A DNA stretch of 64,000 bases from a virus. Its lineage: Duplodnaviria; Heunggongvirae; Uroviricota; Caudoviricetes. How positions within the stretch are numbered: position 1 is the stretch's first letter; each line of letters starts with the position of its first letter. The notes beneath the pieces were generated by a model, which was not told where the DNA came from, did no database searches, and saw nothing but the letters and a program-made list of their open reading frames with translations. The translations under genes and the position numbers were made by a program. Shown here in pieces: positions 1,017-32,734 of the stretch. Where the stretch lies: the IMG/VR virus record IMGVR_UViG_3300031413_000001; one strand, given 5' to 3'.

Positions 1017-1280
1017 ATGATTAGCCTGAGCTATCCCCTGACGGGTGATGAAGAGCCCAACGAGGAACTGGAAGATGAACTCGATCGTCTGATGGGCGAC
1101 AGCGACTACGGCCGCTGCGGCGATGGCGGAGTCTCGGGAGAGGTTCGCGAAGTCGAGTACGAGGGCGATACCGGTCAGGACGATCGGGACTTCAAGGACC
1201 TGACATTCCTCCACCAGCAGATCCTGGATCTGGATCCTCGCATCAAGTGGGAAATCTACGCCGACGAGGAAGACGATTGA
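1017..1280 (+). CDS. acidic hypothetical protein
   Basis: AGGAGAGATCGA RBS before ATG 1017. Confidence 0.75.
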   Translation: MISLSYPLTGDEEPNEELEDELDRLMGDSDYGRCGDGGVSGEVREVEYEGDTGQDDRDFKDLTFLHQQILDLDPRIKWEIYADEEDD

Positions 1281-1555
1281 TGGTGATCGAGGATCTTTAC
1301 CGTAAGTTCAACGAACTGATGAACAAGCGGAACTATCCTCGGGTTGCCTACGTTGATCGCGTTCCGCCCCAGCGAGTCCTAGACAGTTGGTGTGAGGACA
1401 TGAACATGTACAAGCCATTCAAAGACGAGCAGTGGACGCTGGTTGGCGAGGACCCCAAACTCTGCCGCCAACTTTGTGTAATGGCCATGTGTATCAAGAT
1501 CGCAAAAGAGCAGGGCATGGCCGCCGCAACCCTCTACAAGCTTCAGCAAGGATAA
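1280..1555 (+). CDS. hypothetical protein, C-terminal AxxFKL-motif family
   Basis: TGATG coupling; ends AKEQGMAAATLYKLQQG. Confidence 0.75.
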   Translation: MVIEDLYRKFNELMNKRNYPRVAYVDRVPPQRVLDSWCEDMNMYKPFKDEQWTLVGEDPKLCRQLCVMAMCIKIAKEQGMAAATLYKLQQG

Positions 1556-1558
1556 GAG

Positions 1559-1780
1559 ATGGCTGGTTGGTATCTTCTGATTGCCCTCTTGGCCTTTATG
1601 TTCCTAATGGGGGTTCGTCCCAATTTTGGGCGACTGCTGGGAACCCAGAGAAAATGGTACACCCATCCCGATTACGTGATGGTCCATGGCGCGCAATACA
1701 ATGGGCTGATAACCTATTACGTGTTCTTCGTACCCGTGTGGAAACGTGGCTTCCATCATTCAACCGGATGGTATGATTAA
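1559..1780 (+). CDS. small membrane protein
   Basis: N-terminal hydrophobic helix. Confidence 0.7.
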   Translation: MAGWYLLIALLAFMFLMGVRPNFGRLLGTQRKWYTHPDYVMVHGAQYNGLITYYVFFVPVWKRGFHHSTGWYD

Positions 1781-1841
1781 ACTGGTTGACGTAGGGATCG
1801 TTGGTGCTAACTCTGGTGTATAGGCAAACACGGAGTAGAAA
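1780..1841 (+). promoter_or_regulatory. early sigma70-type promoter/leader/RBS element (representative + copy)
   Basis: AACTGGTTGAC-spacer-GGTGCTAACTCTGGT-GTATAGGCAAAC-GGAG; recurs about 40 times in the window. Confidence 0.8.
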
Positions 1842-2066
1842 ATGTTCTCGATGATCCTGATGGCAGCAGCGGCAACGATGACCCCTGGTGCAGTGGCCCG
1901 CCACAACGCTGGTGCAGCCCAGATGGACAAGCTGATCGACCAGATCGAGACGCTCTACGAGGACGCAGATGCAACCGGGAATACGGCGCGCAGCCGAGTG
2001 GTCGAGAAGAAGACCCGGAAGCCGCTAAAGATGAGCTTTGGTCCTCAGGGCCCCAACGTCCTCTAA
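1842..2066 (+). CDS. hypothetical protein, possible signal peptide
   Basis: follows promoter element and RBS. Confidence 0.7.
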   Translation: MFSMILMAAAATMTPGAVARHNAGAAQMDKLIDQIETLYEDADATGNTARSRVVEKKTRKPLKMSFGPQGPNVL

Positions 2067-2080
2067 AGGGAGAGTCCATC

Positions 2081-2314
2081 ATGAACGCACGGCCCGAAGT
2101 CGATAAACTGGAACGACTTTCCAATGAGCTAAAGGCTCTCCGTCGTGAAGGTTACGACACCACCAATGATTCCCGCTACACCGAGATCCGTCGAGCCGGC
2201 GGATTGCTGGAGCAAAAGAGTCGTGAAGTGGATCGCGCCAAGGCTCGCGTTCGCCAGCTGGTCTCGCAGGAATTCGGTGTTGATCTTCTCAAGCTCTACA
2301 GCTTGGTGCACTGA
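2081..2314 (+). CDS. hypothetical protein
   Basis: GGGAG RBS; operon context. Confidence 0.7.
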   Translation: MNARPEVDKLERLSNELKALRREGYDTTNDSRYTEIRRAGGLLEQKSREVDRAKARVRQLVSQEFGVDLLKLYSLVH

Positions 2315-2688
2315 TGCTGGATCTTTCGCCTGAGGGCATCGCCGCCGCGGAGCAGGCGCAGATCGACCGGCTGGACCCCACGCTCAAGGGCACAACGGTA
2401 GAGCAGCTTGCCCGGGCCATCGTGGGGGCCTTTGACATGACCGACTACTGTAACGCCGGGGGCAAGGAGCCGCGTCGTACCGCACGCCGTAGGGCCGTGA
2501 TCGAAACGCGAGCCAAGCTGGTCGAGGACTTGCAAGATCCAAGGTATCCGCGTATCATGATCGAAGCAATCTTCCACGAAGCAACGCGGAAGATGGTTGA
2601 GGCCAGCGCGGCCCTCAAGGAGAGAAGTGAAAATGGCCAAGCTCTTGCAATTCCCCACTCCCAAAGGGTATCACGTCGTAAGTCTTGA
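2314..2688 (+). CDS. hypothetical protein
   Basis: TGATG coupling. Confidence 0.7.
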   Translation: MLDLSPEGIAAAEQAQIDRLDPTLKGTTVEQLARAIVGAFDMTDYCNAGGKEPRRTARRRAVIETRAKLVEDLQDPRYPRIMIEAIFHEATRKMVEASAALKERSENGQALAIPHSQRVSRRKS

Positions 2689-2881
2689 CCTCTTCCTAGA
2701 GCCCGATGGCTCGGTGCTGGCAAGGGTATCGGACATGAGCCCCAATGTGATCGAAAAGATGGGTGGGGAGGTCGCAGACAAGATGCTGAAGATCGCCACG
2801 TGGACTCAGCAAGGAGCCGAGAATCTCGCCGAACAAGCAACCGCGTTGCGTATGCCCGACGAGACTCCCGGCCCCATTTAA
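2633..2881 (+). CDS. hypothetical protein
   Basis: AGGAG upstream of ATG 2633. Confidence 0.65.
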   Translation: MAKLLQFPTPKGYHVVSLDLFLEPDGSVLARVSDMSPNVIEKMGGEVADKMLKIATWTQQGAENLAEQATALRMPDETPGPI

Positions 2882-2896
2882 CACTAGATTGTGGGT

Positions 2897-4114
2897 TTAG
2901 GGTTCCAAGCCAACAACGGTCCAGCTGAACTGGTTATTAGTACGGTCAAGACCAAACCAGACAACCTTTCCATCAATGAACTCAGGATAGGTCTGATGGA
3001 AGTTCGCGTAAGTTGTTGGCGTTCCATTTAGACTGAAGCCTGTGTTGCTGTTCTGAGAACTGGCAGCACTCTGCTCACTCATGTTCTGATCCACTCGACG
3101 GATAACCTTGAACCTGTGAGGAAAGTTCACTGGATTGCTCAGGGAGTTGCGAGTCATCTTCAACACATAGTCAGTGGTCAGTGGCAACAAGTAGTGACCC
3201 GCAGTATCAATAGCGGTCACGTTGGTAAAGCCACTGGAACCTAGGCTGATAAAGCTGCCAGCCGTGTAATCAATGGAAACCCACGCGATGCTGTAATTGC
3301 TGGTCAAGTATGCCATGCGGTCACCAGGAAGGGGTACCATGTCGCCTAGACCAATATTAGCAGTTGTCACGGGTAGTTTGTTCCATGGAACTTGAACGGC
3401 ACCAGTTTGGTTGTTGATTACCACACCAGTTGCACCGCGAAGTTCGCCCACACCACTACTGAAGTAGCGATGCTGAATTAGTGTTAGATCACGTCCAGGA
3501 ATGGGCCTAGCGGTGATCTCGCAGTTGTTGATCAGGTTGGAAAACAAGATCGTGGGAGCAACGTCCCACGTCATTGTCTTGGTCGTGGTGTTGTAGGTTC
3601 CCTTGACACCCTGTGTTGTGCTGCTTGAAGAACCATTGGTACCCTGTGCAACATACATCACAAGGTTGTCTTTGAGCTCAACAATCTTAAAATTGGTTTG
3701 AGCAAACGTTGACAACGCGGCAGACGTGGTAGTGGTTCCAAAGCCAAACTGACCCATGTCAACGCGAGTGAATACTCCCTGCGGATCAACCTCAAAGACG
3801 TACCAGCTCATGTTGCCAGTGTAGACACCGGTCATCATCATAAACGTGGTCTGATTGATTCGAGCGCAGGTCATGTAATTGCTCTGCGTCAAAGGCATCA
3901 GTAGCTGCTGATTGGTTAGCGTGGCAGTGCCCTGACTGGTGATACCACCCGAGACGTCGATGACACTGGCCGCCAGCCAGTTGGGAGAAGTTTGATAGTA
4001 AAGCCAGACCATACGCGATGTGGACAGGCGAACCATTCCATGACCGGTCTTGTCGGTGTTGAATGAACCACCCTGAAAGGGCATTGCACCAATTGAGCGA
4101 ACTGTAGTTGCCAT
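2897..4114 (-). CDS. putative virion structural protein (beta-rich paralog 1)
   Basis: T/S/N/G-rich; paralogous to 4922-6202 and 6247-7914; in late-promoter operon. Confidence 0.6.
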   Translation of the reverse strand: MATTVRSIGAMPFQGGSFNTDKTGHGMVRLSTSRMVWLYYQTSPNWLAASVIDVSGGITSQGTATLTNQQLLMPLTQSNYMTCARINQTTFMMMTGVYTGNMSWYVFEVDPQGVFTRVDMGQFGFGTTTTSAALSTFAQTNFKIVELKDNLVMYVAQGTNGSSSSTTQGVKGTYNTTTKTMTWDVAPTILFSNLINNCEITARPIPGRDLTLIQHRYFSSGVGELRGATGVVINNQTGAVQVPWNKLPVTTANIGLGDMVPLPGDRMAYLTSNYSIAWVSIDYTAGSFISLGSSGFTNVTAIDTAGHYLLPLTTDYVLKMTRNSLSNPVNFPHRFKVIRRVDQNMSEQSAASSQNSNTGFSLNGTPTTYANFHQTYPEFIDGKVVWFGLDRTNNQFSWTVVGLEP

Positions 4115-4117
4115 CTT

Positions 4118-4918
4118 TTATCCTCCTTGATAGGTCATCCAATCGTTTGGAGCCGGCGCTGGCTGATCATAGGCATAATCAGCACTGACTGGTCGCGATG
4201 TGGATGGTGGAGCAACCGAGGTCGCCGTTGTTTCATCCCACCAGGTATTGTCCTCTGGTGTTGTTTGGTCTTGGGCATATTGAGCACTTGTGGGTGCCCC
4301 AATGTTCGTTGGTACCATTGTACCACTTGTCTCATCCCACCAGTTGTTGTTCTCTGGCGTAACCTGATCTTGTGCATACTGAGCATTGGTTGGTCGAGCA
4401 GAGTTGGTTCCAACGACCGTTCCCGTAGTCTCATCCCACCAGTTGTTATCAGTGGGTGTGGATTGACTTTGGGCATAGCGGGCACTTGTTGGTGCTGGAA
4501 CGCCGGGCGCGCTGCGAACAACCGCCGAAGTCTCGTCCCACCAAGCGTTATCGGCCGGCGGAGTGCTCTCATAGTTGTAATTACCAGCGACAAGTCTCTG
4601 GATATCGGTTGCCTGCTGGGTAGCACCGGTGATGCCCCACTGATTGATGTCTGCGGGTTGATCGGTTGCCACGTAGTTTCCAGTTGCAGGACGAACTCCC
4701 GTACCATTGACCACTCGGCCGGTGTTGTTCCAAGCCATGATATCAGCGGGTTGATCGGTTGCCGCATAGTTGCCGGTGTCGGGTCGAGAGGCTGGAGTAC
4801 TCTTGACAAAGAGGTTTGTTGCCATCCACCATTCCTGGGGACGAACAGGCTTCTTCATCGATCTGATCTTTAGGAGTGGGGGTTTCCACCCACTCCTAAC
4901 ACTTATCCTAACGCTCAT
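4118..4918 (-). CDS. tandem-repeat protein (~7 x 33 aa), putative virion protein; start may be 4825
   Basis: repeats of P-x-S/T-x-x-Y-A-x-D-Q-x-x-P-x-D-N-x-W-W-D-E-T. Confidence 0.7.
   Translation of the reverse strand: MSVRISVRSGWKPPLLKIRSMKKPVRPQEWWMATNLFVKSTPASRPDTGNYAATDQPADIMAWNNTGRVVNGTGVRPATGNYVATDQPADINQWGITGATQQATDIQRLVAGNYNYESTPPADNAWWDETSAVVRSAPGVPAPTSARYAQSQSTPTDNNWWDETTGTVVGTNSARPTNAQYAQDQVTPENNNWWDETSGTMVPTNIGAPTSAQYAQDQTTPEDNTWWDETTATSVAPPSTSRPVSADYAYDQPAPAPNDWMTYQGG
4140..4790 (-). repeat. coding tandem repeat, ~99-bp period
   Basis: recurring (T/C)TC(A/G)TCCCACCA at ~4232, 4331, 4430, 4532. Confidence 0.75.
4871..4898. terminator. perfect 10-bp hairpin (terminator or processing site)
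   Basis: TAGGAGTGGG-N8-CCCACTCCTA. Confidence 0.45.
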
Positions 4919-4921
4919 ATC

Positions 4922-6202
4922 TTACGATGCATTCTTCAAAATGTTCCAGGCCAGTTTGCCCGAAGCATCAAGTCCCCACCAAAACACATCGCCGTTTGGC
5001 AACATGCGGGGGCGACTGTCATTGTACCAAGTCTGGATCCAGGGAGCCGTTACTTCAAAGCCAGTTGCACTGATGGCGCTTCCTGGGCTCTGACTTGCCA
5101 TGTTGGCATCATCACGACGGGTGATCTTGATCTTGATATTGCCGCTGGTTGCGCTGGCAAAGTGGGTACGATCCCACAGCATCACATAGTTGGGGTCCAT
5201 TGGAAACGCCAATTGTGGATTGGGAGATTGCGTTGAAGTAAAGCTACCAAAGCCATCATTGGTCGAGGTACCCACTGTGTTAGTGGTGCCACCGCTCAAT
5301 CCATAGTAATAGTTCCAAGTCCAGGACGTGCGAGCCATACGAGTGTCGGACATCATAGCCATGTCCTGCGCCTGCGTGACAAGCGAGTTACCCAGCGAGT
5401 TCTCAAAACGTGGATAATTGGCTGCAATCGTGCCATCGGCATTGACTACCAGTGTTTGAAACTGCATCGCAGTACCATTCCAAGCAGCCAAGGTACTGGC
5501 AGTCTTAAACGTGATAGCCTTCTTGGTGCTGTTGGGAATCGCACGCCAGTAAACTTCCGCGGAGTTAGCAGATCCCGCGTTGTTGAAACCTCCTTGGGAG
5601 GTCAAGTTGCTGCTATTGAATGTTACAACCTTGGTCGTGGTGTTGTAGGTACAGACAGCAGAGACGCTAGTCACCGAGGAATTGTTGAACCCAGCAAAGA
5701 GAAACTGATTATCGGCCAGTGGCACCAGTGTCGCGATGTTGGTGAACTTTGCATTGGAAAGCTGCTGAGGGGTCAAGTAGCCGGTGGAGTTGGGAATAGA
5801 AGTCTGCACAACATCGTAGGCATCCAGATTGGTTGCCGTTCTGGTGAACACATTATCGGCGTTGATCTCAAATACTTCATAGGACCAGCTAACGCTGGTT
5901 ACGGCCTGAAGATCCATGATCATAAAGGCGTTGTCGTTTAGCCGTACCATCTGAAGACTCAAGCCCCTGTAGGTCTTCTGATCCTGCATACGCGAGACAG
6001 TGACTGTTGGTGTACCGCCATTGGCCCAGCCCTCTGGGGTATCAACAACCACAAAGTAACGCCAATCAGGTGCACTCTGACAGTAAGTCCAGATCATGCG
6101 AGTTGGGGTTAGCTGGACGGCTGCCGAATAGGGCTGCGCGGTCCTAAGTGTTCCACCATTGTAGGGAATGGCAGGAATGCTTCGTGTAATTACCTCAGCC
6201 AT
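4922..6202 (-). CDS. putative virion structural protein (beta-rich paralog 2)
   Basis: shares RSIxAxP..GG, L..xRMxW.Y.Q..P, RR.D.N and W.GLD blocks with paralog 1. Confidence 0.6.
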   Translation of the reverse strand: MAEVITRSIPAIPYNGGTLRTAQPYSAAVQLTPTRMIWTYCQSAPDWRYFVVVDTPEGWANGGTPTVTVSRMQDQKTYRGLSLQMVRLNDNAFMIMDLQAVTSVSWSYEVFEINADNVFTRTATNLDAYDVVQTSIPNSTGYLTPQQLSNAKFTNIATLVPLADNQFLFAGFNNSSVTSVSAVCTYNTTTKVVTFNSSNLTSQGGFNNAGSANSAEVYWRAIPNSTKKAITFKTASTLAAWNGTAMQFQTLVVNADGTIAANYPRFENSLGNSLVTQAQDMAMMSDTRMARTSWTWNYYYGLSGGTTNTVGTSTNDGFGSFTSTQSPNPQLAFPMDPNYVMLWDRTHFASATSGNIKIKITRRDDANMASQSPGSAISATGFEVTAPWIQTWYNDSRPRMLPNGDVFWWGLDASGKLAWNILKNAS

Positions 6203-6224
6203 ATTTTGCTCCTATTGCTTGACG

Positions 6225-6230
6225 TATTTA
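6225..6230 (-). promoter_or_regulatory. putative late promoter TAAATA
   Basis: T4-like late core ~23 nt before ATG 6202, with AGGAG RBS between. Confidence 0.55.
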
Positions 6231-6246
6231 TCTGCGTTGTTGGATA

Positions 6247-8026: not shown

Positions 8027-8317
8027 ATGAACGTTAAGCCAGAAGCAGGTGATGTATATTTCCTGGACGCAGAGCGCATTCTCGTTTATGGTCTCCAAGG
8101 CATTGCTCTAAAGCTGGGCCAGCGCAACTTGGAACGCCTTCGGACGATCTACCGAACACACGAGTGCGTAAAGGAAACTGATATGAGCGACCGACGCTTT
8201 ACGGTTGCTTATGATGAGAACTGGCAGAAGTTCCGCTTCGAAGTCGCAGGTGGCGAAACTGTCCGAGTGGAAGCATGGCAGTTGGTGCCCGATGTTTTGG
8301 AGAAGATGGCAGCGTGA
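8027..8317 (+). CDS. hypothetical protein
   Basis: GGTTGAC promoter and AAGGAGATCGAAG RBS. Confidence 0.75.
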   Translation: MNVKPEAGDVYFLDAERILVYGLQGIALKLGQRNLERLRTIYRTHECVKETDMSDRRFTVAYDENWQKFRFEVAGGETVRVEAWQLVPDVLEKMAA

Positions 8318-8589
8318 AAGTCAACGACCTACGTGAACAGTTCAAGGCCGCGTTTGAGGAGTACGTGGCCTATCGTGCTACCATGATGACCGCCAGGGAC
8401 CCCAATCGACCCAAGGGCAACATGCGGCAATGTTACCTCCATGCCAAGGAAATGCTGGATGGCAACATGCAGCCAACGACCAAATACAAGATGGTCCTGA
8501 TCCGCTTAGTGAGAACCGGCGACGTATATCTTCATGCAAAGAAGCATGGGATTCAAAGCGCCATGATGTTCAAGCTGAGCAGAGAATAG
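8314..8589 (+). CDS. hypothetical protein, C-terminal AxxFKL-motif family
   Basis: GTGA overlap; ends AKKHGIQSAMMFKLSRE. Confidence 0.75.
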   Translation: MKVNDLREQFKAAFEEYVAYRATMMTARDPNRPKGNMRQCYLHAKEMLDGNMQPTTKYKMVLIRLVRTGDVYLHAKKHGIQSAMMFKLSRE

Positions 8590-13889: not shown

Positions 13890-14040
13890 CTTTGGCGCAG
13901 CTATCAAGGCTGCCCGTCGTTATGGCTTCCTGCTGCCGGAGGTCAACGTTGCCAATCACGCTCGACTGAAGGCAATCCGTGAAGCTGGCGAGCCCGAGCC
14001 TTTTGTGGAGCCCAGTAAGCGAAAGAAGTCCAGTGACTGA
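13702..14040 (+). CDS. hypothetical protein (start uncertain)
   Basis: fills gap to next gene; overlaps previous ORF. Confidence 0.5.
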   Translation: MKSDPGSPKEPESWSQYCSRMYREDPHGISPQSVEVDEATRGYWSAGLRWPDGSSVEGIVYFNFGAAIKAARRYGFLLPEVNVANHARLKAIREAGEPEPFVEPSKRKKSSD

Positions 14041-14269
14041 GAGGCCAGTAGCTGAACAGCCTGGCTTTCACAGGATAGAGACAAGATCACTGGATCGTTG
14101 GGAGATCGAAGAACTCTTTGAGTTCTTGACAGGACTGCCCAATACCAAGTGGACGCAAACGGACATTGCGATCTCCAAGGATCGAATGATGACCTCGCGG
14201 AAGGGAACCATTGTTCTCTACGAAGACCAGCGTGACGAAGCAATCTACGCCAAATTGAAATGGGGATAA
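14033..14269 (+). CDS. hypothetical protein, C-terminal AxxFKL-motif family
   Basis: ends EDQRDEAIYAKLKWG. Confidence 0.7.
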   Translation: MTERPVAEQPGFHRIETRSLDRWEIEELFEFLTGLPNTKWTQTDIAISKDRMMTSRKGTIVLYEDQRDEAIYAKLKWG

Positions 14270-15021: not shown

Positions 15022-15207
15022 ATGGCCGAGGAGATCACTGCGGCTCGCTTTCGCGCTGCGGTTGGTCGCGAGCCAGAAAACGATGACCTGTCCCGCAGTA
15101 ATTGCTCAGAGCGAGGTGATGATGGTCACTGGTGTTGCGGCTGGGATCATGCGGCCAATCTTCCGGTGTTCATGACTGGAACAACCATCTACCGACTGGA
15201 AAAGTAA
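15022..15207 (+). CDS. small Cys-containing hypothetical protein
   Basis: GREPENDDLSRSNC..G..GHWCCGW. Confidence 0.7.
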   Translation: MAEEITAARFRAAVGREPENDDLSRSNCSERGDDGHWCCGWDHAANLPVFMTGTTIYRLEK

Positions 15208-15392
15208 TGCTTTGGGGACTGACATACCATACTATTCAAATGGTATTGGCTTTTCTGTTCGTGTTTCTCGCCGGCGCCCAAATGGAGCGCGGACGAGTGG
15301 CAACCAGCTTGTTACTCTTAGTTGTGGGAATCTTGACCTTTCTGGCCGAGGTTTCCACCTTTCTAGTCTTCATTGGACCACTGATAGCCTGA
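15207..15392 (+). CDS. small membrane protein
   Basis: TAATG coupling; 2 TM. Confidence 0.65.
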   Translation: MLWGLTYHTIQMVLAFLFVFLAGAQMERGRVATSLLLLVVGILTFLAEVSTFLVFIGPLIA

Positions 15393-15598
15393 TGAAACGA
15401 TCAACCATAGAAACAATCAGTCAGAGTCTCAAGGTCGTAGGAACCATAGTGGTTGCCCTCATGGCTATTTGGTTACTGACAGACGATGTTCAGCCCAACT
15501 ATGTCCAGGGACGGATGATCATGGGCTTTCTAATGATCATCCTGGGCTACTTGATAGATATCAAGTACCTATTGGAAGATCGAAACAACACGAGGTAA
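15392..15598 (+). CDS. small membrane protein
   Basis: TGATG coupling; 2 TM. Confidence 0.65.
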   Translation: MKRSTIETISQSLKVVGTIVVALMAIWLLTDDVQPNYVQGRMIMGFLMIILGYLIDIKYLLEDRNNTR

Positions 15599-19570: not shown

Positions 19571-19904
19571 ACTGTGGAGTGCGGAGCAACTCAAGGATGA
19601 GATCTCCGATTTTATCGCCAAGGACATGGGCCTCTACATCAAGAATCTGCAGGGGCAGGGTGCTGATGTGGTTGGCCTGGATCTGGGCGGCTTCGTGGTC
19701 ATCGAGTACCACTACATTCCCGCAGAGAGCATCCGAATGGTTCTCCAAGTCAAGGGCAAGAGCCTGATCATGGAGGTCTATCAGGATCAGGACGGTGTCC
19801 GGCGGACTCAGCTGTTCAAGCGAAAGCGTATGATCCCAGTGATCGATTACGTGGATCTCAAGACCAAGCAAGCCGATCCCGGCGAATCAACGATGTTTGG
19901 TTGA
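19563..19904 (+). CDS. hypothetical protein
   Basis: GGAGG RBS. Confidence 0.7.
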   Translation: MIELWSAEQLKDEISDFIAKDMGLYIKNLQGQGADVVGLDLGGFVVIEYHYIPAESIRMVLQVKGKSLIMEVYQDQDGVRRTQLFKRKRMIPVIDYVDLKTKQADPGESTMFG

Positions 19905-21861: not shown

Positions 21862-22127
21862 TGGGCAAGAAGAAAAAGGCCGAACGGCAACCGCTCAAGG
21901 TCTATGGTCAGCTGGTCGGCGACGGCGATGTTGAGGAGGGTGTCAAGCCCGTTCTGCTGGAGGAGGTTTGCTTTCTCGCTGACCCCAAGATGCTCCGCAA
22001 GATTGCCAAGCATTTGAAGGAATCTGCGAAGATTCTGGAAAAATGGGATCATCACCATATGAACAACCACAAGCATGGTGTGGAGATCATCGTTCTCCGT
22101 CCCGAGCATATGGCACCCCTTGACTGA
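21861..22127 (+). CDS. hypothetical protein
   Basis: TAATG coupling. Confidence 0.7.
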   Translation: MGKKKKAERQPLKVYGQLVGDGDVEEGVKPVLLEEVCFLADPKMLRKIAKHLKESAKILEKWDHHHMNNHKHGVEIIVLRPEHMAPLD

Positions 22128-22354
22128 TGGAAATTGCCCACTATTTTGAGAACCCACCGGACTACGTTTTCAAGGTCCGTGGCTCGCGGGAGGAACTAGA
22201 GGAGTTGGAACAACGCTTCTGGAAGATCTCGGTGAGCATGATAGCGGGCAATCCATTGTTAGCCATTCTCAAAGATGGCGTGCCGACCTTCCAGACCAGC
22301 TACAGTTTCAGTGATCCCAAGGAAGCGATGATGTTTCGGCTAGCCGTCATCTAA
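22127..22354 (+). CDS. hypothetical protein, C-terminal AxxFKL-motif family
   Basis: ends FSDPKEAMMFRLAVI. Confidence 0.75.
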   Translation: MEIAHYFENPPDYVFKVRGSREELEELEQRFWKISVSMIAGNPLLAILKDGVPTFQTSYSFSDPKEAMMFRLAVI

Positions 22355-22416: not shown

Positions 22417-23676
22417 ATGAAGCGGATTCTACTTGCAATGGCCGCGCTCGCGCTGACGACGCCGGCCTTTGCTGCAATCCCCAATCCCCCGCCCCTTGAT
22501 CCCACCAAAAGTGTGGTCGATGGAGCCAACATCCTCGATGACGCGCAGGAAGCTGCTCTCGAGGCGCAGACGCGGCAGATCTACGATGCCACGCATCACC
22601 ACATCGTCGTTCTGACCACTCCCACGATGAAGGGTTACAGTGGCGTTGAGTACGGCAACAATGCCTTCCGCTACTATAAGATCGGCAACCGGACGCGAAA
22701 CGATGGCGTCCTGCTTCTGGTCAGCATGAGCAACCCACGGCGGCTCCAGATCGTTCCCGGCTATGGTCTGGAAGGTGAGCTCACGGATGCGCGGTCTGTG
22801 GAGATCACCGAGGCGATGAAGCCGGTGATGAAGTCCGGTGATTATGGGGCGGCAATCAGCCAGGGCGTCGATCAAATCGGCACGACGATCACCAAGGAAG
22901 TGGTCACGCCCCAGCAACTGGCGGCCACGGCTCCTGGTACGCAGACGGCTGTGGAAAAGGCCGAGAGCAGCGACACGTGGCTTACCATTCTGGCGATCTT
23001 CCTGGTCCTCGGTCTGGCCTGGCTGGCCTTCTACTTGTTCATCCAGCGTCCCAAGCATCTAAAGGCCAAGGCGCTTCTGCTCCGCATCAACGGTCTGATC
23101 AGCGATGGCAAGACTTATGAATACAGGGACGACCTGATCAACGCACAACTCAAGTACCAGCAGGCGCTGGAACTCGATCCCAGCAATGAGACGATCCAGT
23201 ACAAGCTCTCTTCCGTAGCGCGGGACATTCAGCGCAAAAAGGATGAGGCAATCGCGGCGGCCGCTCGTGCAGTCGAGGCAGCAAAGCCCAAGCCCAAGCC
23301 AATGGTCGTGGAGCGAGTTCGGGAAACGTTCACCAAGCCTTCGCCATCGGTTGGCAGGACGCCAACGGCAGCGCGCAACTACAGCCCGCCACCCGCTCCT
23401 CCCAAGCGCGATACTGGGCCATCAGCGGCAGCACTGGCAGCGGCTGCCGAGGAACAGCGGCGACGCGACCGAAAGCGCCAGCAGGATCGTGATGACGAGG
23501 ATCGCCGTCAGCGCCAGCGCGAGGATGATGATCGCCGGTCGCGTGATAGCTGGTCGTCCAGCAGCTCGTCGAGCAGCAGCTCAAGCTCATCGTCCAGCAA
23601 CGATTACTCCAGCCCTTCGCCCAGCTTCGACAGCGGTGGCTCCTCGGGCGGAGGTGGTGGTGGCTCCGACTGGTAA
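22417..23676 (+). CDS. TPM-domain membrane protein (YgcG-like) with TPR-like and S/G-rich tail
   Basis: signal peptide; VVDGANIL, GVLLLVS, GYGLEG.LTD; TM; AL.LDP.N. Confidence 0.85.
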   Translation: MKRILLAMAALALTTPAFAAIPNPPPLDPTKSVVDGANILDDAQEAALEAQTRQIYDATHHHIVVLTTPTMKGYSGVEYGNNAFRYYKIGNRTRNDGVLLLVSMSNPRRLQIVPGYGLEGELTDARSVEITEAMKPVMKSGDYGAAISQGVDQIGTTITKEVVTPQQLAATAPGTQTAVEKAESSDTWLTILAIFLVLGLAWLAFYLFIQRPKHLKAKALLLRINGLISDGKTYEYRDDLINAQLKYQQALELDPSNETIQYKLSSVARDIQRKKDEAIAAAARAVEAAKPKPKPMVVERVRETFTKPSPSVGRTPTAARNYSPPPAPPKRDTGPSAAALAAAAEEQRRRDRKRQQDRDDEDRRQRQREDDDRRSRDSWSSSSSSSSSSSSSSSNDYSSPSPSFDSGGSSGGGGGGSDW

Positions 23677-23753: not shown

Positions 23754-24014
23754 GTGGTCACTTTCAAAAGCACAATGAGCAACTGGTCCAACGACGGATC
23801 CACTTGGGTATGGTGCGAGGGCACGATGCGCGATCTGGAATCCGTAAAGGAACAAGTCCTTGGGCGCCAGTGGTCCGAGAAGGTGGAAGTGGGTCTAGCA
23901 GAGCCCAGCAGTGGTCGCCACGACTACGCGGGACCATTTGCTGATCGTCCCCACTACATGGCATTCGTCTTTTACTGCAAACAGGACGCCACTCTCTTCA
24001 AGCTGAGTTACTGA
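23754..24014 (+). CDS. hypothetical protein, C-terminal AxxFKL-motif family
   Basis: ends FYCKQDATLFKLSY. Confidence 0.75.
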   Translation: MVTFKSTMSNWSNDGSTWVWCEGTMRDLESVKEQVLGRQWSEKVEVGLAEPSSGRHDYAGPFADRPHYMAFVFYCKQDATLFKLSY

Positions 24015-24325
24015 TGCGCTTTACCCGGATGCAAAAGGTGGACGAGCTCACGTGGATCCACATCGAAGGATCCGCGGAAGAGATCGCTAGGGCTGAGCAG
24101 TGGGTCAAGACCAGTGCGACCATGTGGGTAATGGACTATCCAGTGGTCACCAAGGCATTCCTGCCCGATGGTTCTCCCGCTAGTGGCAACATGACTTCCT
24201 TTATCTTGTCCATGATCAAGCAAGGCAAGAAGTCCTCGGTTGTCAGCAACATGACGATCATCCACGAGAAGAAGTTCTGCTTCAAAGATCCCGGTGACGC
24301 GCTCCGGTTCAAACTGTCCATGTGA
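24014..24325 (+). CDS. hypothetical protein, C-terminal AxxFKL-motif family
   Basis: ends FKDPGDALRFKLSM. Confidence 0.75.
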   Translation: MRFTRMQKVDELTWIHIEGSAEEIARAEQWVKTSATMWVMDYPVVTKAFLPDGSPASGNMTSFILSMIKQGKKSSVVSNMTIIHEKKFCFKDPGDALRFKLSM

Positions 24326-24364: not shown

Positions 24365-24625
24365 ATGAAGATCAAGACCTATGCCGAACCTGGTAGCACC
24401 CTTGCGTTTGCATATGGCAACGAGACCGCCCACCACTGGATTATTGACGTGGACGGCGAGGAATATGTAGAGCTGATAACGAGGCTCAAAGACACCAAGT
24501 GGAACAAACAAGTAGCTTGGTATCCCAAGTTCTTTCCCAGTGATGTCTATGGGAAGACTGATCTGGAAGCCCACATCATAGCCTACGACGATCGAGACGC
24601 GACGCTTTTACGTTTGTCGCTGTAG
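24365..24625 (+). CDS. hypothetical protein, C-terminal AxxFKL-motif family
   Basis: ends YDDRDATLLRLSL. Confidence 0.75.
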   Translation: MKIKTYAEPGSTLAFAYGNETAHHWIIDVDGEEYVELITRLKDTKWNKQVAWYPKFFPSDVYGKTDLEAHIIAYDDRDATLLRLSL

Positions 24626-24633
24626 GAGGCTCG

Positions 24634-25263
24634 ATGGAAACTCAGTTTACAAAGAAGATCTATTACAAGAAGTATGACCACCGCCTGGTCATCAATGCTA
24701 GGACTTGTGGCTACCGGGAACCAGTAATCAAGCCAACCGCTGAAACAGTGGAGTGGCTGCTGAATAAGCGTTTTCCTGACGGCGGATGGCGCACGGTAAG
24801 CACCTACAGCTATGTTCACAAGAGCCAGCAATGCTCAGTGTTCTTCAAGGATCCAGTGGTCTTTGAATACTTGAAGGAACAAGTTGGTGAGGACTTTATC
24901 AGTGTACTGGAAAAGCCACTGAGTGCAGAGCACACGCAGATGCTGGAAAGCAACGACAAGCTGATCACTCGAAAGCAACTGTTCTACAGCAAGTATAGGA
25001 TGTGCCTACGAGTAAGCCACACTCGCCTAAGCTACTGGCAGACCAGCAGCGAGAACGTTCGTGAGATGCAGGCTTGGTGCAAGGAACAGTTTGGCGACGA
25101 CCAGGAACGCTGCATGATGAGCGGCTGGTCGCGCGGTAACTTTTACTTCAAGGACCCCAAGGACGCCCTACTGTTCAAGCTGACTTGGGGTGGGCAGGAT
25201 GTCAAGACCGAACGTGTTATCACTGTTGCGGAACTTGAAGCAGCGAAGGTTTCAGAGGCCTGA
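24634..25263 (+). CDS. hypothetical protein, AxxFKL-motif family (two-domain)
   Basis: FYFKDPKDALLFKLTWG near C-terminus; VFFKDP in first half. Confidence 0.8.
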   Translation: METQFTKKIYYKKYDHRLVINARTCGYREPVIKPTAETVEWLLNKRFPDGGWRTVSTYSYVHKSQQCSVFFKDPVVFEYLKEQVGEDFISVLEKPLSAEHTQMLESNDKLITRKQLFYSKYRMCLRVSHTRLSYWQTSSENVREMQAWCKEQFGDDQERCMMSGWSRGNFYFKDPKDALLFKLTWGGQDVKTERVITVAELEAAKVSEA

Positions 25264-25885: not shown

Positions 25886-25948
25886 TTTCGATCTCCTGCT
25901 CAACTCGTATTTCTGTCCTAGCAGAACTGGACACGCTGTCAACCAGTT

Positions 25949-26659
25949 TTAGAATTCTTTGGTGACACCTAAAACGAATTCAACCGCTGGAGTCTGACGT
26001 GTTAGACCAATGTTGGCATTGATATCAAACTCCACACTTTTGGATGCCGTGTAGGCGAGAGTGAAATCTGCACTGCTCTGCGTCTCACCCCGTTGATGCT
26101 GGATCATGTATTCCACAGTACCACTAATGGGTCCGTGGAGTATCTGGTTGACACCTAGAAATGTGCCTCCCAGCAGATACTGGCCCTTGACCGCATAGGG
26201 CGTAAGATAAAACTGCGTCCGGGGAGTGATATCGTAGGTGCTCCCAAAGGCAATTCCGGGAATCAATCGACCAGCGGAAAGCTTCGAGGAGCCCGTTGGC
26301 AACTGAATACTGGGCTGGACTGCTAGGCTGAAGTCACCTTCTACAAGACGCTTCCGGTAGCTTAGGCGGAGATCACCACGGCCCTGAGCAAAGCTCTTAC
26401 GTACCATGGGGCTCATGGCCAGCTGAACTTCCGATGTGTCATCTAGACCCAGCCGGACAACCGCATCAGCAATCAAACGGGTATCATCGGCATCCTGGAA
26501 CCAGTCAAGGAGACCAATCTCAACTTGAATGTGTCCGGGATCAACGGTGCAGGGCTGAAACGCCCCACGATCGGGACAAAGTGGCTTGAGTTCCTGTGCG
26601 GCCACTGGGCTCGCAAGGAACGTGCCGGTTATGAAAAGTAGTCGCGAAATGCTTGCCAT
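25949..26659 (-). CDS. outer-membrane beta-barrel 'transporter' (Phenol_MetA_deg-like)
   Basis: signal peptide; LCPDRG...PCTVDPGHIQVEIG; LPTG; C-terminal F. Confidence 0.75.
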   Translation of the reverse strand: MASISRLLFITGTFLASPVAAQELKPLCPDRGAFQPCTVDPGHIQVEIGLLDWFQDADDTRLIADAVVRLGLDDTSEVQLAMSPMVRKSFAQGRGDLRLSYRKRLVEGDFSLAVQPSIQLPTGSSKLSAGRLIPGIAFGSTYDITPRTQFYLTPYAVKGQYLLGGTFLGVNQILHGPISGTVEYMIQHQRGETQSSADFTLAYTASKSVEFDINANIGLTRQTPAVEFVLGVTKEF

Positions 26660-26844
26660 GAACAAACCGCGATCCAGCTGACCAATGCCAGGGCGATGAA
26701 CACCACACCAAGGTAGGCCATCCAGACAATCAGCTTTCCGATGAGCATGATGATACCAATGAGGAGGGCGAGGCCTACGACTACAAAGGTACACACAATG
26801 CAGATTGCGACGAATAAGAAAGCAAGTCCCACGAAAGCGTCCAC
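26629..26844 (-). CDS. small membrane protein
   Basis: almost entirely hydrophobic; GGAG RBS. Confidence 0.65.
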   Translation of the reverse strand: MDAFVGLAFLFVAICIVCTFVVVGLALLIGIIMLIGKLIVWMAYLGVVFIALALVSWIAVCSWQAFRDYFS

Positions 26845-27280: not shown

Positions 27281-27281
27281 T

Positions 27282-27446: not shown

Positions 27447-27463
27447 CACGTTTCTCCTATGCA

Positions 27464-27495: not shown

Positions 27496-27500
27496 GCCGA

Positions 27501-27818: not shown

Positions 27819-27954
27819 GATTTCGATCTCCTCGTTATGCCCAGGACAACTGCTGCCCTGTCCTCAACACACCTAATGCCGTCCTGGTTTACGTCAACCG
27901 CTTTTTTCACACCAGGAAATTTTTGTTCACTAAATAGAGCAAGAGGAGAAACCG

Positions 27955-28485: not shown

Positions 28486-28850
28486 GCCATCATCAGCAGT
28501 TCTTCGGTCTCCTGACGAATATCCGAAGTCATCATGCGGGCCAGCGCGTGAAGGTAGCCAAAGCGCGCAGCCTGGCGCCACGCATCATTGACATCCAGAC
28601 GAACCGGAAACACCTTGACCGCGTCGGCGGCCGTCAGGTCGTTATCCTCGGCGTCGAGACCATCACCGTTGAAAACCAGGAACTCCGTGGGAACAGTCGG
28701 ACCAGCCGGCTGGCAGACCGTAACGAGAATCTCGCCACCGCACTTGATCTGGAGCATGTTCTCGCAGTCGTGCGTTTCGGTCGTCAGCGCATAGTTGCGG
28801 CGTGCAATTTCGTTCTGCGTGTTCTGGTAGTCGTTTGCTGCGATGGACAT
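28482..28850 (-). CDS. hypothetical protein
   Basis: promoter element and AGGAG RBS. Confidence 0.75.
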   Translation of the reverse strand: MSIAANDYQNTQNEIARRNYALTTETHDCENMLQIKCGGEILVTVCQPAGPTVPTEFLVFNGDGLDAEDNDLTAADAVKVFPVRLDVNDAWRQAARFGYLHALARMMTSDIRQETEELLMMA

Positions 28851-28917
28851 TTGGTGTCTCCTGTCTGCGTTTCCAATACTTCCTATAAAGAGGAGTAATT
28901 GGTACGTCAACCAGGAT

Positions 28918-29364
28918 TTACTCTTTTCCGTCGAGAATATTCCGCACCCTCTGTGCCAGCTCTTCAACCTGATAGGGCTTAGCCAACATGCTGAAGCCAT
29001 CCTGGTTCTTGCTGCCGTCGAGCATGCCTGCTCCGTATCCGCTGCAAAGCAGGATCTTGACGTCCGGCATCACTTCCATGACTTTCCGCGCAAGTTCCAC
29101 GCCATTCATACCACCCGGCAACACAATGTCGCAGCACATGATAGCAGGCTTGAAACCGCCGACCAGCTTTTGGATGGCCTCATTGGCGTTCAGGGCGCCC
29201 TTGACCGTATAGCCATAATCCTCGAGAACGTCCATTGCGAACTCAAGGATCATGGGCTCGTCATCAACGATCATGACGTTTTCGGTGCCCGTGTTGGGCT
29301 TCTTTGTTTCTGCTTTGGCGGCAAGCTGCTGGAGCCCAGCCGCAATACTGGTTAGGTCGTCCAT
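28918..29364 (-). CDS. single-domain response regulator (receiver of hybrid-kinase type)
   Basis: IVDDE, phospho-Asp DIVLPGGMNG, SGY, KPY. Confidence 0.9.
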   Translation of the reverse strand: MDDLTSIAAGLQQLAAKAETKKPNTGTENVMIVDDEPMILEFAMDVLEDYGYTVKGALNANEAIQKLVGGFKPAIMCCDIVLPGGMNGVELARKVMEVMPDVKILLCSGYGAGMLDGSKNQDGFSMLAKPYQVEELAQRVRNILDGKE

Positions 29365-29453
29365 TCTCAATCCCCTAGGAGTTAACCCATTATGGTACAA
29401 CTCCGCTCAACAATCAATAACTGTTGTACTTAGCGGATTGAGAATGTTGCGGT

Positions 29454-29900
29454 TTACCGCTTAGAACGAGGACGAGGGGGAGTCGGAATGTATGTCGATC
29501 CCCCCATTTTGGGATGAGTATAACCATTAGGAGTGAATGGGGGGATCTTTGCAGCTTCTTGAGCAATAAAGGCCGCACGACCGGCCTGTGCCCACCCAAT
29601 GTAAGCATCCCAGACGCTTTGCACCAGGTTGTTGGTTGCCTGTCGAAGCGACACCGGCTCGTCGGAAAAGCCCAGTGCCTCGAGGACGAACTGGTCACGA
29701 ACCCTGTCGAGCATCTCGAAGAAATCGTCCTGTGTCCGGGTCGTCTTATCCGAGATCAGCTTGGCGTTGTCGTCAGCACCCTGTGCGGTTGCGCGAATCA
29801 GGTACTCGGCTTCCGGGCCCATGCCGTTGAACTGTTTGCCCGATGCAAGGATGCGGATCATGTAGTCTGCGGCGTAGATCTTCGTCTGGTCAATGTCCAC
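29454..29900 (-). CDS. hypothetical protein
   Basis: promoter element and RBS. Confidence 0.75.
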   Translation of the reverse strand: MDIDQTKIYAADYMIRILASGKQFNGMGPEAEYLIRATAQGADDNAKLISDKTTRTQDDFFEMLDRVRDQFVLEALGFSDEPVSLRQATNNLVQSVWDAYIGWAQAGRAAFIAQEAAKIPPFTPNGYTHPKMGGSTYIPTPPRPRSKR

Positions 29901-29966
29901 GTGCTGTCTCCTGTTTGCCTATAAACCAGAGTTAGCACCATGGGACTGCACGTCAACCGCTTTTTA
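29901..29966 (-). promoter_or_regulatory. early promoter/leader/RBS element (representative - copy)
   Basis: AAAAAGCGGTTGAC-spacer-GGTGCTAACTCTGGTTTATAGGCAAACAGGAG. Confidence 0.8.
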
Positions 29967-31211
29967 CCAGTCGCTGCTCGAACCGCTGCTGTCATAGCTG
30001 CTCCCGCTGTAGCTGCTATATTCGTAGCCACGATTGTCTGTGAAGTTGCTCTGTCCACGAACCTTGGCCTTGGCAGCTTGGAGCAAGCGATCCTGCGCCA
30101 ATTTTTGCTGGCGGCGATTCTCGTCAACGTATGCCTGCTGCTCAGCAAGTCGAGCGGCCTGCTTCTTTGCTGCAAGCCACAAGTTGGCTTCCTGTGCGGT
30201 TGGAAAGCCAGCGACCTCGTCGCCATACTGCACCATGACCAGATCGTGATGATCAAAGTTCTTTGCAATGGAGTACTCGTACTCTGCATAGTCCTGGGCC
30301 TGCTCGGCATCAAGACGATCAAGCTCTGCGAGTATCTCGTCAATGACCATTTCGGCATTCTTCTGCCGATGCTTGGCCGCGATCTCTTCGGCAGTTGCCT
30401 GACGAATTCCTGGGAAGCCAGTGACACCCTGGGGACCAACAGTCGGCGGAGGCAGAAGGCTCTGATCGACCAGCTCATCAGTCGAGAGGGGAATATAAAC
30501 CTTGGGCTGATAGTTCTCAGGAACAGTCCACCAGTCGGGAGCCAGCGTGGGCTCAGCGAGGATGCCACGAGGATTAAGCCAGAAGGCATCCGGGGTCATC
30601 CAATACAGATCATTGTTTTTGCGCTGCTGGGCTTCACTCCAGTAGGGGTTGACTTTGGGCTCCGGCTTTAGGACGATTGGTTCGCGAGGCTCCAGGATCT
30701 TAGTGATCGCTTCATCGATCTCCTTTTGACCATTCTGAAAGCCCTCAAGCCACTTCTTGTCCCGTGCGGCCCTGATCTCGTCACGATGCGTCCAAACGTA
30801 CCAGAACTTGCTGGCCGTGACCATCAGACCATCGCGGCCCAGGTTGATGTCCATTTGGTCCTCGACCACAACGGGGAGGTTGATCTTGGGGGCCTTGACC
30901 TCTGGGAGATTCTCAACCAGCGCCTTGCGGTACAGCTCACCCTTGCCAGTAAGCCAGTAGCGACCGTCCTCACGAACGCTCACGATGTTGAGGCGCTTCA
31001 TGTTCTTCATGGACTCAACTTCGCCACGAGGATCATAGAGATGTGCGCGGATCACGTAGCTTCGAACGTTGTCGGGCCAGGCTCCTGCGACGCCTTCTGC
31101 ATTTTGGATCAGGTCGATCTGATAGTCCGAGAGGCCAAGATCGGCCATCTGCAACCAGGTGTTCTGGTAGCGCACTGCCCTGACCGTTTCTCCTGCATCA
31201 ATATGCGACAC
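29964..31211 (-). CDS. hypothetical protein with coiled-coil and S-rich C-terminus
   Basis: AGGAG RBS; 415-aa ORF. Confidence 0.8.
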   Translation of the reverse strand: MSHIDAGETVRAVRYQNTWLQMADLGLSDYQIDLIQNAEGVAGAWPDNVRSYVIRAHLYDPRGEVESMKNMKRLNIVSVREDGRYWLTGKGELYRKALVENLPEVKAPKINLPVVVEDQMDINLGRDGLMVTASKFWYVWTHRDEIRAARDKKWLEGFQNGQKEIDEAITKILEPREPIVLKPEPKVNPYWSEAQQRKNNDLYWMTPDAFWLNPRGILAEPTLAPDWWTVPENYQPKVYIPLSTDELVDQSLLPPPTVGPQGVTGFPGIRQATAEEIAAKHRQKNAEMVIDEILAELDRLDAEQAQDYAEYEYSIAKNFDHHDLVMVQYGDEVAGFPTAQEANLWLAAKKQAARLAEQQAYVDENRRQQKLAQDRLLQAAKAKVRGQSNFTDNRGYEYSSYSGSSYDSSGSSSDW

Positions 31212-31265
31212 CGTTGAACTCCTACTGCCCTCTATTCATCCACTTTATAACCTGGTTTCCAGTGT

Positions 31266-31928
31266 TCAACCGAAAAATACCAGTTCAAAGCGACGAACGA
31301 GGTCTTCATGGCCAGCAGCACGAATCAGCTTGATGACCTTTTCTTCAACGCCCTTGTACTTGCTATGAAGGACGCTCACAACCTTTAGACCTGTAGTGGG
31401 AGCCTCGGTCAAGCGCACGATTGCATCATCGGGGAACGGTACAACGCCAGCACGACATAGAGACCATGCCGCGCTGAGCAGCGCGCAGGTATGCTCCTCC
31501 CGATCATCCCACACGTTCTTGAGCCCGATGCGATCACCCATTGGGCTCTCAAACATCAGGACCTTTTTGTTTTCCTTTCGAATGGTCTGCCAGCTAAGAT
31601 ACTTCTGTGGAAGCTGACTTATGATCAGATCAGCCACGGGCGCCATCTTGCCCTCAAAGACCACAAAGTCAGGAGCAAGGCCACGCCGCAGAATGCAGCG
31701 GATAAACTCCGTGACGTCCAGGGTATTGGCCTTGACATGCAGCTCATCGATCAGGATAGCACTGACAACCAGCCCCGAGGGATCACTGTTCTTGTCCAGA
31801 TAGTCCTTCATGACGTCCAGGCTTTGGTGTTGCTCATCGCCAAACACCTCGTCGGCATAGATGTGCGCGAACTCCACGAACATGTCGGGGACTGGCAAGT
31901 TCCGCAGACCTGGAAGATGACTTCCCAT
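31266..31928 (-). CDS. hypothetical protein, SCO2522-like / HUP-fold candidate
   Basis: VEFAHIY, ILIDE, CALLSAAW.L.R.G, SVL..KY..VE..V. Confidence 0.45.
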   Translation of the reverse strand: MGSHLPGLRNLPVPDMFVEFAHIYADEVFGDEQHQSLDVMKDYLDKNSDPSGLVVSAILIDELHVKANTLDVTEFIRCILRRGLAPDFVVFEGKMAPVADLIISQLPQKYLSWQTIRKENKKVLMFESPMGDRIGLKNVWDDREEHTCALLSAAWSLCRAGVVPFPDDAIVRLTEAPTTGLKVVSVLHSKYKGVEEKVIKLIRAAGHEDLVRRFELVFFG

Positions 31929-32140
31929 CAGAGACTCCACATGATCCAGAGGGGCCACAACACCACGACCAAGAAGACCAGGAACCAGATGGGGATAAAC
32001 TGTCGGGGCTTCCAACGCATATTTTTGGGAACACCATCGGACCACCAGATAAACAGCACGAACACAATGGCCGTGAGTCCAGTCAGTAGAACACCGGTGA
32101 TGCCGTGGACGAGGTTCATCAAAGTGATTGTAATGCTCAT
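31928..32140 (-). CDS. small membrane protein
   Basis: 2 TM; TGATG coupling. Confidence 0.7.
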   Translation of the reverse strand: MSITITLMNLVHGITGVLLTGLTAIVFVLFIWWSDGVPKNMRWKPRQFIPIWFLVFLVVVLWPLWIMWSL

Positions 32141-32178
32141 ATGTTCTGAGTAACACCAGTTCGCAGCATGTCAACCAA

Positions 32179-32475
32179 TCAACGGAAGACTGGCTTTTGA
32201 GTCCGATCAAACCAAGTCAGCTTGAACAGCATGGCATCACTGGCGTCCTGTATGTAAAAGGGCCGGACACTGCCTCCCTGGTTTGCACCCCATGTCCAGT
32301 TGCCCTGGAGCGTATCGTCGCACCACTCCAAGATGTCATGCTTCTCGTCCGAGACTCTGACAACCCGACCATCCCGCTTTCGTCTGTATTGTGTGGGGAT
32401 CGGTACGTGGAAGACATGCCACTCCAAGCACTTTAGACTAAATGGACTTGGCTGACTCATCTTTTTCCACAACAT
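32179..32475 (-). CDS. hypothetical protein, AxxFKL-motif family
   Basis: EWC...FYIQDASDAMLFKLTWF. Confidence 0.75.
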   Translation of the reverse strand: MLWKKMSQPSPFSLKCLEWHVFHVPIPTQYRRKRDGRVVRVSDEKHDILEWCDDTLQGNWTWGANQGGSVRPFYIQDASDAMLFKLTWFDRTQKPVFR

Positions 32476-32734
32476 GCTCTAGGAACGCCATCCTGAATAG
32501 CATGGCTTGCTCACGATCCTCAATAAAGAACCCAACATGCCAGGCCGTATAGAACGTCCACTCGCAGGTCAAGACGTCGGTTGCCCAACGTCCTGCCTTT
32601 CCACCAGCCGTGTGGTGAATGACGACCCGATGCCAGCCCATCTTTTGAGCTGGGTTGTTCTCCGGCTTTCCTCCCAGGAGCTCGTGAAGGGGACCAAAGT
32701 TTTTGGGCTGGCTCAAATCGCTCCATGCTCCCAT
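32438..32734 (-). CDS. hypothetical protein, AxxFKL-motif family
   Basis: FFIEDREQAMLFRMAF. Confidence 0.7.
   Translation of the reverse strand: MGAWSDLSQPKNFGPLHELLGGKPENNPAQKMGWHRVVIHHTAGGKAGRWATDVLTCEWTFYTAWHVGFFIEDREQAMLFRMAFLEHVVEKDESAKSI

Follow-up and report, generated by a model that had tools for sequence, protein, structure and literature searches.

The stretch of DNA analysed here, referred to as the window, comprises 64,000 nucleotides of IMG/VR record IMGVR_UViG_3300031413_000001 (Caudoviricetes). It is part of a jumbo phage of ~460 kb with a T4-capsid-type head and stems from plant-surface metagenomes; the G+C content is ~55%, short open reading frames (ORFs) are abundant and tRNA genes were not found in the window. 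Eight of its genes encode members of a family of small proteins, here called the FKLTW family. The original prediction had listed ten proteins as part of a family of at least that size, sharing only a C-terminal motif (F-x-D-x-x-D/E-A-x-x-F-K/R-L). All ten peptide strings were recovered exactly, each one in an ORF and at its C-terminus or close to it; the coordinates given with them turned out to be ORF starts on the plus strand or low ends on the minus strand, and not positions of the motif. Eight of the ten proteins were assigned to the family, one belongs to a separate family (8275-8589) and one is a chance match (1247-1555). The family itself, dispersed, partly tandem and strongly diversified, is real. 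Its genes in the window are given below, with E-values against the iterated family profile and the ratio of nonsynonymous to synonymous substitution rates (dN/dS) against the orthologue in the related record G001.

13979..14269, + strand: family member, 96 amino acids (aa), GTG start; domain at ~14030-14266; C-terminus ...AIYAKLKWG; profile E 6.9e-6; dN/dS 0.17, no indels
22127..22354, + strand: family member, 75 aa; C-terminus ...FSDPKEAMMFRLAVI; profile E 9.9e-7; dN/dS 0.10
23754..24014, + strand: family member, tandem gene 1, 86 aa; profile E 3.6e-8; dN/dS 0.04
24014..24325, + strand: family member, tandem gene 2, 103 aa; profile E 1.2e-5; dN/dS 0.13
24365..24625, + strand: divergent family member, tandem gene 3, 86 aa; C-terminus ...AYDDRDATLLRLSL
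24634..25263, + strand: long family member, tandem gene 4, 209 aa; profile E 2.9e-20; dN/dS 0.04
32179..32475, - strand: family member, 98 aa; near-consensus ...DAMLFKLTWF followed by an 11-residue tail; profile E 1.8e-17
32438..32734, - strand: family member, 98 aa; profile E 6.7e-10; identical to the G001 orthologue

The four-gene tandem that had been predicted at 23.7-25.3 kb is present, and the stop codon of its first gene overlaps the start of the second. On the minus strand, the 3' end of 32438-32734 overlaps the start of 32179-32475.

All of G001 (416,714 bp, ~90% complete), which is ~95% identical to the window, and the distant complete relative G003 (462,455 bp) served as stand-ins for the whole genome of the window phage. 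The window maps end to end onto the reverse strand of G001 (302,031-239,470) with ~90-97% identity in most blocks. A seed profile, to which eight of the ten proteins contributed their 24 C-terminal residues, found dozens more ORFs in G001, every match lying at the C-terminus of the ORF. After iteration with 70-residue extensions, the profile converged on 99 ORFs of G001 and seven of the window at E≤1e-3, the latter with E-values from 1.2e-5 to 2.9e-20. The same iterated profile had no match at E≤1e-3 among 6,538 reversed or shuffled ORFs; the similarity is statistically significant. Further, a loose regular expression of the motif applied to the last 22 residues hit 12 window ORFs versus 3.2 ± 1.6 in shuffles, showing that the motif signal is real and that a few chance look-alikes are to be expected. 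The profile-based, genome-wide count that the original prediction had proposed thus gave ~100 copies in G001, far above what the ten proteins had indicated.

Two of the eight members deserve a closer description. As a single sequence, 24365-24625 failed the family profile (E 11), but when it was profiled with its orthologues from the related records G006 and G002, 50 columns matched the family (hhalign probability 91.6%, E 8e-7). The long member 24634-25263 has a canonical domain at residues ~129-192 (25006-25209), followed by a C-terminal tail of 17 residues. Its residues 33-74 weakly match the family profile again and contain ...FFKDP... and then a different helix; the N-terminal half resembles a second, degenerate copy of the domain, as if by tandem duplication. 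This architecture is retained in the full-length metagenomic relatives P0037 and P0039 and in the G003 orthologue.

Purifying selection acts on the family genes. When the window was compared with G001, no indels were found in the eight members, and dN/dS was 0.04-0.17 where substitutions sufficed, which falls inside the range of 21 neighbouring genes. Almost half of the G001 members (48 of 99) have a reciprocal-best orthologue in G003 that outscores any paralogue and is collinear in the arrays. The median identity of these orthologues is 38.6%, compared with 52.9% for the other reciprocal-best pairs, among which small proteins were counted as well. Within one genome, most paralogues share 24-45% identity, and about ten pairs look recent. 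From the syntenic orthologues, these identities and the purifying selection, we conclude that the expansion is old, with copies that are individually maintained, evolve faster than the rest of the proteome and undergo some turnover.

These data bear on the possibility that the similarity has no meaning at the protein level, the motif being a chance motif, a DNA repeat at gene ends (a recombination or terminator element) or a relic of neutral junk duplicates. One of the ten proteins, 1247-1555, is indeed a chance match, and 7-mers of the motif-coding sequence are enriched upstream of array genes. The enriched 7-mers, however, simply stem from the gene before, whose 3' end encodes the motif. The motif codons have a third-position identity of 0.50 and use every synonymous codon; because synonymous codons vary freely, the motif is conserved at the level of the protein and not as a DNA repeat. 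The profile had no match in the shuffled or reversed ORFs, and purifying selection together with syntenic orthologues at ~38% identity speaks for maintenance of each copy. The control, codon, selection and synteny tests refute this explanation for eight of the ten proteins, and we give it next to no probability.

The two proteins that were not retained are as follows.

8275..8589, + strand: not shown to be a member; own conserved family, ending ...YYHAKKHGxQSAMLLKLS; dN/dS 0.27
1247..1555, + strand: non-member; real conserved ORF, ending ...AAATLYKLQQG

Even as a profile of eight sequences, 8275-8589 matched the family profile over 10 columns only (hhalign probability 58-79%), and the alignment of its orthologues lacks the tryptophan of the first helix and the aromatic residue of the first strand that are typical of the FKLTW family. 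Its own family is represented by a pair of neighbouring paralogues in G002, in G003 and in G004 and has invariant D-L-R and M-R motifs; the likeness is limited to the last helix. For 1247-1555, membership was rejected with an hhalign probability of 3.8% and a profile E of 7.1. Between the member at 22127 and the four-gene tandem lies a gene (22417-23676, + strand) for a protein of 419 aa that clearly contains a TPM (phosphatase-like) domain (E 7e-33) and may also contain a TPR.

Copies were counted once more, independently of the iterated search that had yielded 99 ORFs:

G001: 100 copies
G002, G003 and G004 (complete relatives, 436-465 kb): 82, 88 and 83 copies
G006 (fragment of 182 kb): 64 copies
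Sinorhizobium phage Phosso (cultured, 469 kb): 60 copies, every one annotated as hypothetical
Agrobacterium phage Atu_ph07: 5 copies, weak matches

The family profile had no match in T4, XacN1, phiM12 and phiCbK. By these counts, the family reaches 60-100 copies per genome in one clade of ~440-470 kb phages of the T4-capsid type; the major capsid protein of G001 and its relatives is of the T4 gp23 type. A large array of two convergent arms contains 49 genes in G001 and 39 in G003, a second one 13 and 12 genes, respectively, and many small groups and single genes come in addition, so that the layouts of the two genomes are alike. Genes in the arrays are tightly packed in an operon-like manner, with overlaps of 1 or 4 nt. 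A scan for terminators was not above shuffled expectation.

The exact peptide AMLFKLTW is present in ~30 IMG/VR contigs, several of them >270 kb, and in prophage regions of a Rhizobium genome (two profile matches) and a Novosphingobium genome (three). A few prophages carry the family, with 1-3 copies each; in one provirus, the single copy adjoins genes for an integrase and a DNA-binding protein. Among 200 further alphaproteobacterial genomes sampled, two had a match at E≤1e-5. When 1.84 billion representative proteins were searched with the profile, 4,244 clusters were returned at E≤1e-3; most of the proteins have 55-110 aa, and some contain two domains. The count should be read as an upper estimate, since the top match, P0001, is probably a false positive that arose by convergence: it is a bacterial surface-repeat protein of 1,882 aa in which only the first-helix region of the profile matched, and its repeats read E-L-x-D-W-L-x-x-N-G-G and then W-S-N. 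Among GenBank phages, tblastn with single members found Phosso only, and weakly, and three word-index protein searches gave almost no matches.

To what extent the motif stands alone was examined in the 99 G001 members. In order, the alignment shows a helix with a tryptophan (W-L/C), an aromatic residue ~14 positions later and a hydrophobic strand (F-x-F), usually followed by an aspartate and a turn, then A-(M/L)-(L/M)-F-K-L-x-W and often G-G and the stop codon. Conservation reaches 99% at W24, 99% (aromatic) at position 38, 78% at F54, 92% at A60, 94% at F63, 90% at K64, 95% at L65 and 95% (aromatic) at position 67. K64 is the sole strongly conserved polar residue, and the loops have near-zero information. 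The near-invariant tryptophan and the first-strand aromatic residue were also seen in the alignments of the window members. The shared homologous region therefore spans ~50-65 residues, and the statement that the proteins share only a C-terminal motif was too narrow. The domain ends at most three residues before the stop codon in 84 of 99 members, the median member has 96 aa, of which 19 (median) precede the start of the profile, and a membrane-like segment was found in 1 of 99. Isoelectric points (pI) have quartiles of 4.9, 6.5 and 8.9. Conserved catalytic or metal-binding residues were not found in the column statistics of the family.

AlphaFold, run on the family alignment of 97 sequences, modelled the domain with a predicted local distance difference test score of 82 and two helices (residues 15-29 and 51-61) that flank two strands (36-39 and 45-48). 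In the full-length model of 32179-32475, residues 46-92 were confident and showed the same helix-strand-strand-helix order, and residues 1-40 were of low confidence. In these models, the F-x-D-x-x-D-A-x-x-F-K-L motif is predicted to be the last β-strand and the C-terminal amphipathic helix of the domain; together with the tryptophan of the first helix and the aromatic residue of the first strand, it would form the hydrophobic core. This outcome comes close to the objection that the original prediction had raised against itself, in that the motif is modelled as the core of a common small fold. The proposed detachable docking helix was not borne out: the constant part is the strand-plus-helix core of a ~50-residue domain with almost exclusively hydrophobic or aromatic conserved positions. 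Nor are variable recognition modules apparent; the variable parts are mostly N-terminal tails of 10-45 residues with low model confidence.

In full, the model of the original prediction is that of an adaptor repertoire: the constant C-terminal element would place all members on one hub, such as a phage-encoded Clp-type unfoldase/protease, the polymerase or a scaffold, and the variable N-terminus would pick the cargo or target. The nearly invariable position of the domain at the extreme C-terminus is in line with this, as are the conserved lysine in an otherwise hydrophobic helix and the variable tails of low model confidence, as expected for peptide-like recognition elements. A few members have extra N- or C-terminal pieces, including a segment of the capsid protein, and several Clp proteins occur in relatives of the clade, as annotated in Atu_ph07 and with six Clp ORFs in phage AP-J-162 (PMC11242549). 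However, the conservation extends over ~50 residues of one compact domain in which buried-type residues (W, F, L, A) dominate, the typical N-terminal part has just ~10-45 residues, and the prophages with 1-3 copies show no sign of a co-occurring hub. We consider a common hub rather unlikely, though worth keeping in view.

The family had no counterpart in the family databases that were searched. Neither the ten window proteins nor the 97 aligned domains had a match above cut-off in Pfam-A or at E≤0.01 in PHROG, and a sequence search of the PDB gave nothing below E 0.24. Foldseek against solved structures returned weak matches only, the best to the C-terminal pairing domains of TFIIH p8 and p52 (E 0.4; TFIIH matches in all E 0.4-2, probability ≤0.72, template modelling score 0.46-0.55). 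VIA-align gave Z-scores ≤5.9 to many unrelated small α/β domains, with which TFIIH p8/Tfb5 (Z 4.7) was tied. Like the FKLTW domain, p8/Tfb5 and the C-terminal domain of p52/Tfb2 (PDB 3DGP and TFIIH cryo-EM structures) are small two-layer α/β domains with a similar order of elements, and they work by pairing with a like domain; however, with a weak structural match and no sequence similarity, what the match indicates is a common arrangement rather than membership in one family. The nearest neighbours by structure and by features, in a viral structure library and in the ESM Atlas, were all uncharacterised phage proteins.

The literature was searched in full text for the motif and for expansions of gene families in jumbo phages; no description of this family emerged. 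The paper on the related Sinorhizobium jumbo phage AP-J-162 reports 304 'unique' ORFs and is silent on any paralogous family (PMC11242549). In a comparative study of 224 jumbo phages, an expansion of a zinc ribbon to ~35 copies in Bacillus phage G was termed 'unprecedented' (Iyer et al. 2021, PMC7824862). There, too, a small domain of unassigned function has been multiplied in a jumbo phage, and the copies were proposed to be specific factors (PMC7824862). The FKLTW family differs from it in fold, in the lack of metal ligands and in a copy number that is 2-3 times higher (60-100); besides, its expansion is clade-wide with syntenic orthologues, and single copies occur in prophages. The family seems to be phage-specific and to have gone unnamed so far, and its expansion looks exceptional for a phage.

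One member links the family to the capsid. In G001 (162,400-162,897, + strand) and G003 (451,169-451,705, + strand), the domain is followed by a copy, ~40-50 residues long, of the N-terminal arm of the capsid protein. The copy is 57% identical to residues 81-120 of the phage's own capsid protein and matches model positions 3-61 of Pfam Gp23 (E 2e-11 and 7e-15); this conserved member occurs in G001, G003 and Phosso alike. Other Phosso ORFs also contain fragments of the capsid protein, in one case fused to a family domain. A 145-aa frame at PV764938.1 113,938-114,294 (- strand) combines the domain with a stretch from the C-terminal region of the capsid protein (match to Gp23 positions 305-354, slightly under the cut-off) and is a second kind of capsid-fragment fusion. 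A cluster of look-alikes in the ESM Atlas has Gp23 matches in 13% of its members. Next to the capsid-arm gene, another member (G003 and its G001 orthologue, both + strand) has a C-terminal extension of 124-138 residues. In the G003 copy, this extension weakly resembles, below threshold, the beginning of the ribonucleotide reductase barrel domain (E 0.003); its counterpart in G001 gave no Pfam match, and none of the phage's own genes matched.

Such fusions could mean that the members are not cytoplasmic effectors but virion-associated proteins with a role inside the head, in decoration or in assembly, and that the capsid link reflects co-assembly. The conserved capsid-arm member and the ESM Atlas cluster point in this direction. 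On the other hand, the capsid segment is limited to one orthologous group and the one further ORF of Phosso, the arrays in the window lie among accessory genes and not in structural modules, and the relatives in Atu_ph07, whose virion was analysed by mass spectrometry, are annotated as hypothetical and not as structural proteins (PMC11242549). A place in the virion is therefore, in our view, improbable for the family.

The capsid arm also motivates a reading in which the domain displays decoys. The copy aligns to residues 88-131 of T4 gp23, a range that contains the Gol peptide, which we take to lie at about residues 93-122. Gol is tied to Lit, an abortive-infection protease. A short Gol peptide within T4 Gp23 has been reported to activate the Lit protease (PMC9712102; PMC12926258). 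It would appear from the fusions that at least one member displays an epitope of the capsid. If the whole family were a display scaffold, the variable peptide or surface of each member would mimic an epitope of phage or host and so blind bacterial immunity that senses proteins; the capsid-arm member would be the clearest example. The capsid clue does not generalise, since the other variable parts remained unmatched. An origin of the variable N-terminal regions as pieces of other phage proteins was considered and rejected: only the capsid segment matched another gene, and the non-domain parts of the other 98 G001 members had no match among the phage's other proteins except for one match of 20 residues to another member. 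For the family at large, we give the decoy reading little chance.

We lean, with slightly better than even confidence, towards a different function, namely that these small, soluble single-domain proteins are a non-enzymatic scaffold whose copies have diverged into a repertoire of binders, probably serving host takeover or counter-defence. Each protein would consist of a short, variable N-terminal tail and the ~50-residue helix-strand-strand-helix domain, normally at the C-terminus; the stable core of the fold would be kept constant and the variable surfaces would bind different targets. A scaffold with variable binding surfaces is suggested because catalytic and metal-binding residues are missing, the charge varies, loops and tails are hypervariable and each paralogue is conserved. 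The repertoire probably represents accessory host-interaction proteins, for takeover or for counter-defence. An accessory role fits the genomic company, as the window members lie among non-structural genes, such as that of the TPM-domain protein, and the provirus copy lies by an integrase. Of the options in the original prediction, the diversified anti-defence family is the direction we favour; the data establish homology, predicted fold, copy numbers, purifying selection, orthology and synteny, and the binding function and its targets are what we infer.

Several points weigh against such a binder repertoire. Two strands and two helices are small for a stable monomer, and the protein may in reality work as an oligomer or in a complex, which would be a better fit to the model of a shared partner; so small a two-stranded sheet may need one. 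A role as fold core alone leaves the invariant lysine of the helix and the strict C-terminal position unexplained. Positive selection left no sign in the comparison of two close relatives, the window and G001, and a promoter scan was not above shuffled expectation. Finally, the binding function is argued from the absence of an active site and from the evolutionary pattern.

The proposed binders can be compared with two groups of known proteins. Arn and IPI* of T4-type phages are small early or injected counter-defence proteins that are soluble, non-enzymatic and accessory. Arn was among the structural neighbours (VIA-align Z 4.8), and these proteins illustrate, by analogy, a possible way in which the family may work; there is no homology, however, and T4 has no member of the family. 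DNA mimicry of the Arn/Ocr type was considered and rejected, as the net charge of the members ranges from -13 to +11 and the pI is >8 in 32 of 99. Giant eukaryotic viruses have expansions of ankyrin, MORN, BTB and F-box proteins with tens to hundreds of copies. There, too, a small interaction scaffold has been diversified, in arrays and in the largest viruses of their kind; the FKLTW family differs in its bacterial hosts, its new, non-repeat fold and its single domain per gene.

Some observations concern the window as a whole. Public runs that contain its DNA are phyllosphere and plant metagenomes. The intervals 15176-15409, 19579-19809, 25898-26666 and 29454-29907 are replaced or skipped in related strains from other plant metagenomes, and gaps in the G001 map coincide with them; they look like hot spots where small genes are replaced among close relatives. 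Metatranscriptome contigs with 88-99% likeness overlie parts of the region, including 24980-25193; they may stem from DNA carry-over and give no expression level, and were not counted as evidence of expression.

Most genes of giant phages have no assigned function, and here one unnamed domain accounts for 60-100 genes per genome, which at the gene density of Phosso is an estimated 8-15% of the genes. This looks like the largest expansion of a gene family that we found reported for a phage. Since Phosso is cultured and has a genetically tractable host, deletions, proteomics and interaction screens are feasible. If the proteins are binders directed against the host or its defences, they would be, to our knowledge, the largest such repertoire of a phage and would also offer protein engineering a new small scaffold. 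If they are decoys, a tenth or more of the genes of a giant phage would be a counter-surveillance library, and if all of them dock on one machine, they would constitute a new kind of phage adaptor system. In any of these cases, a name for the family would give an annotation to thousands of phage proteins now called 'hypothetical'.

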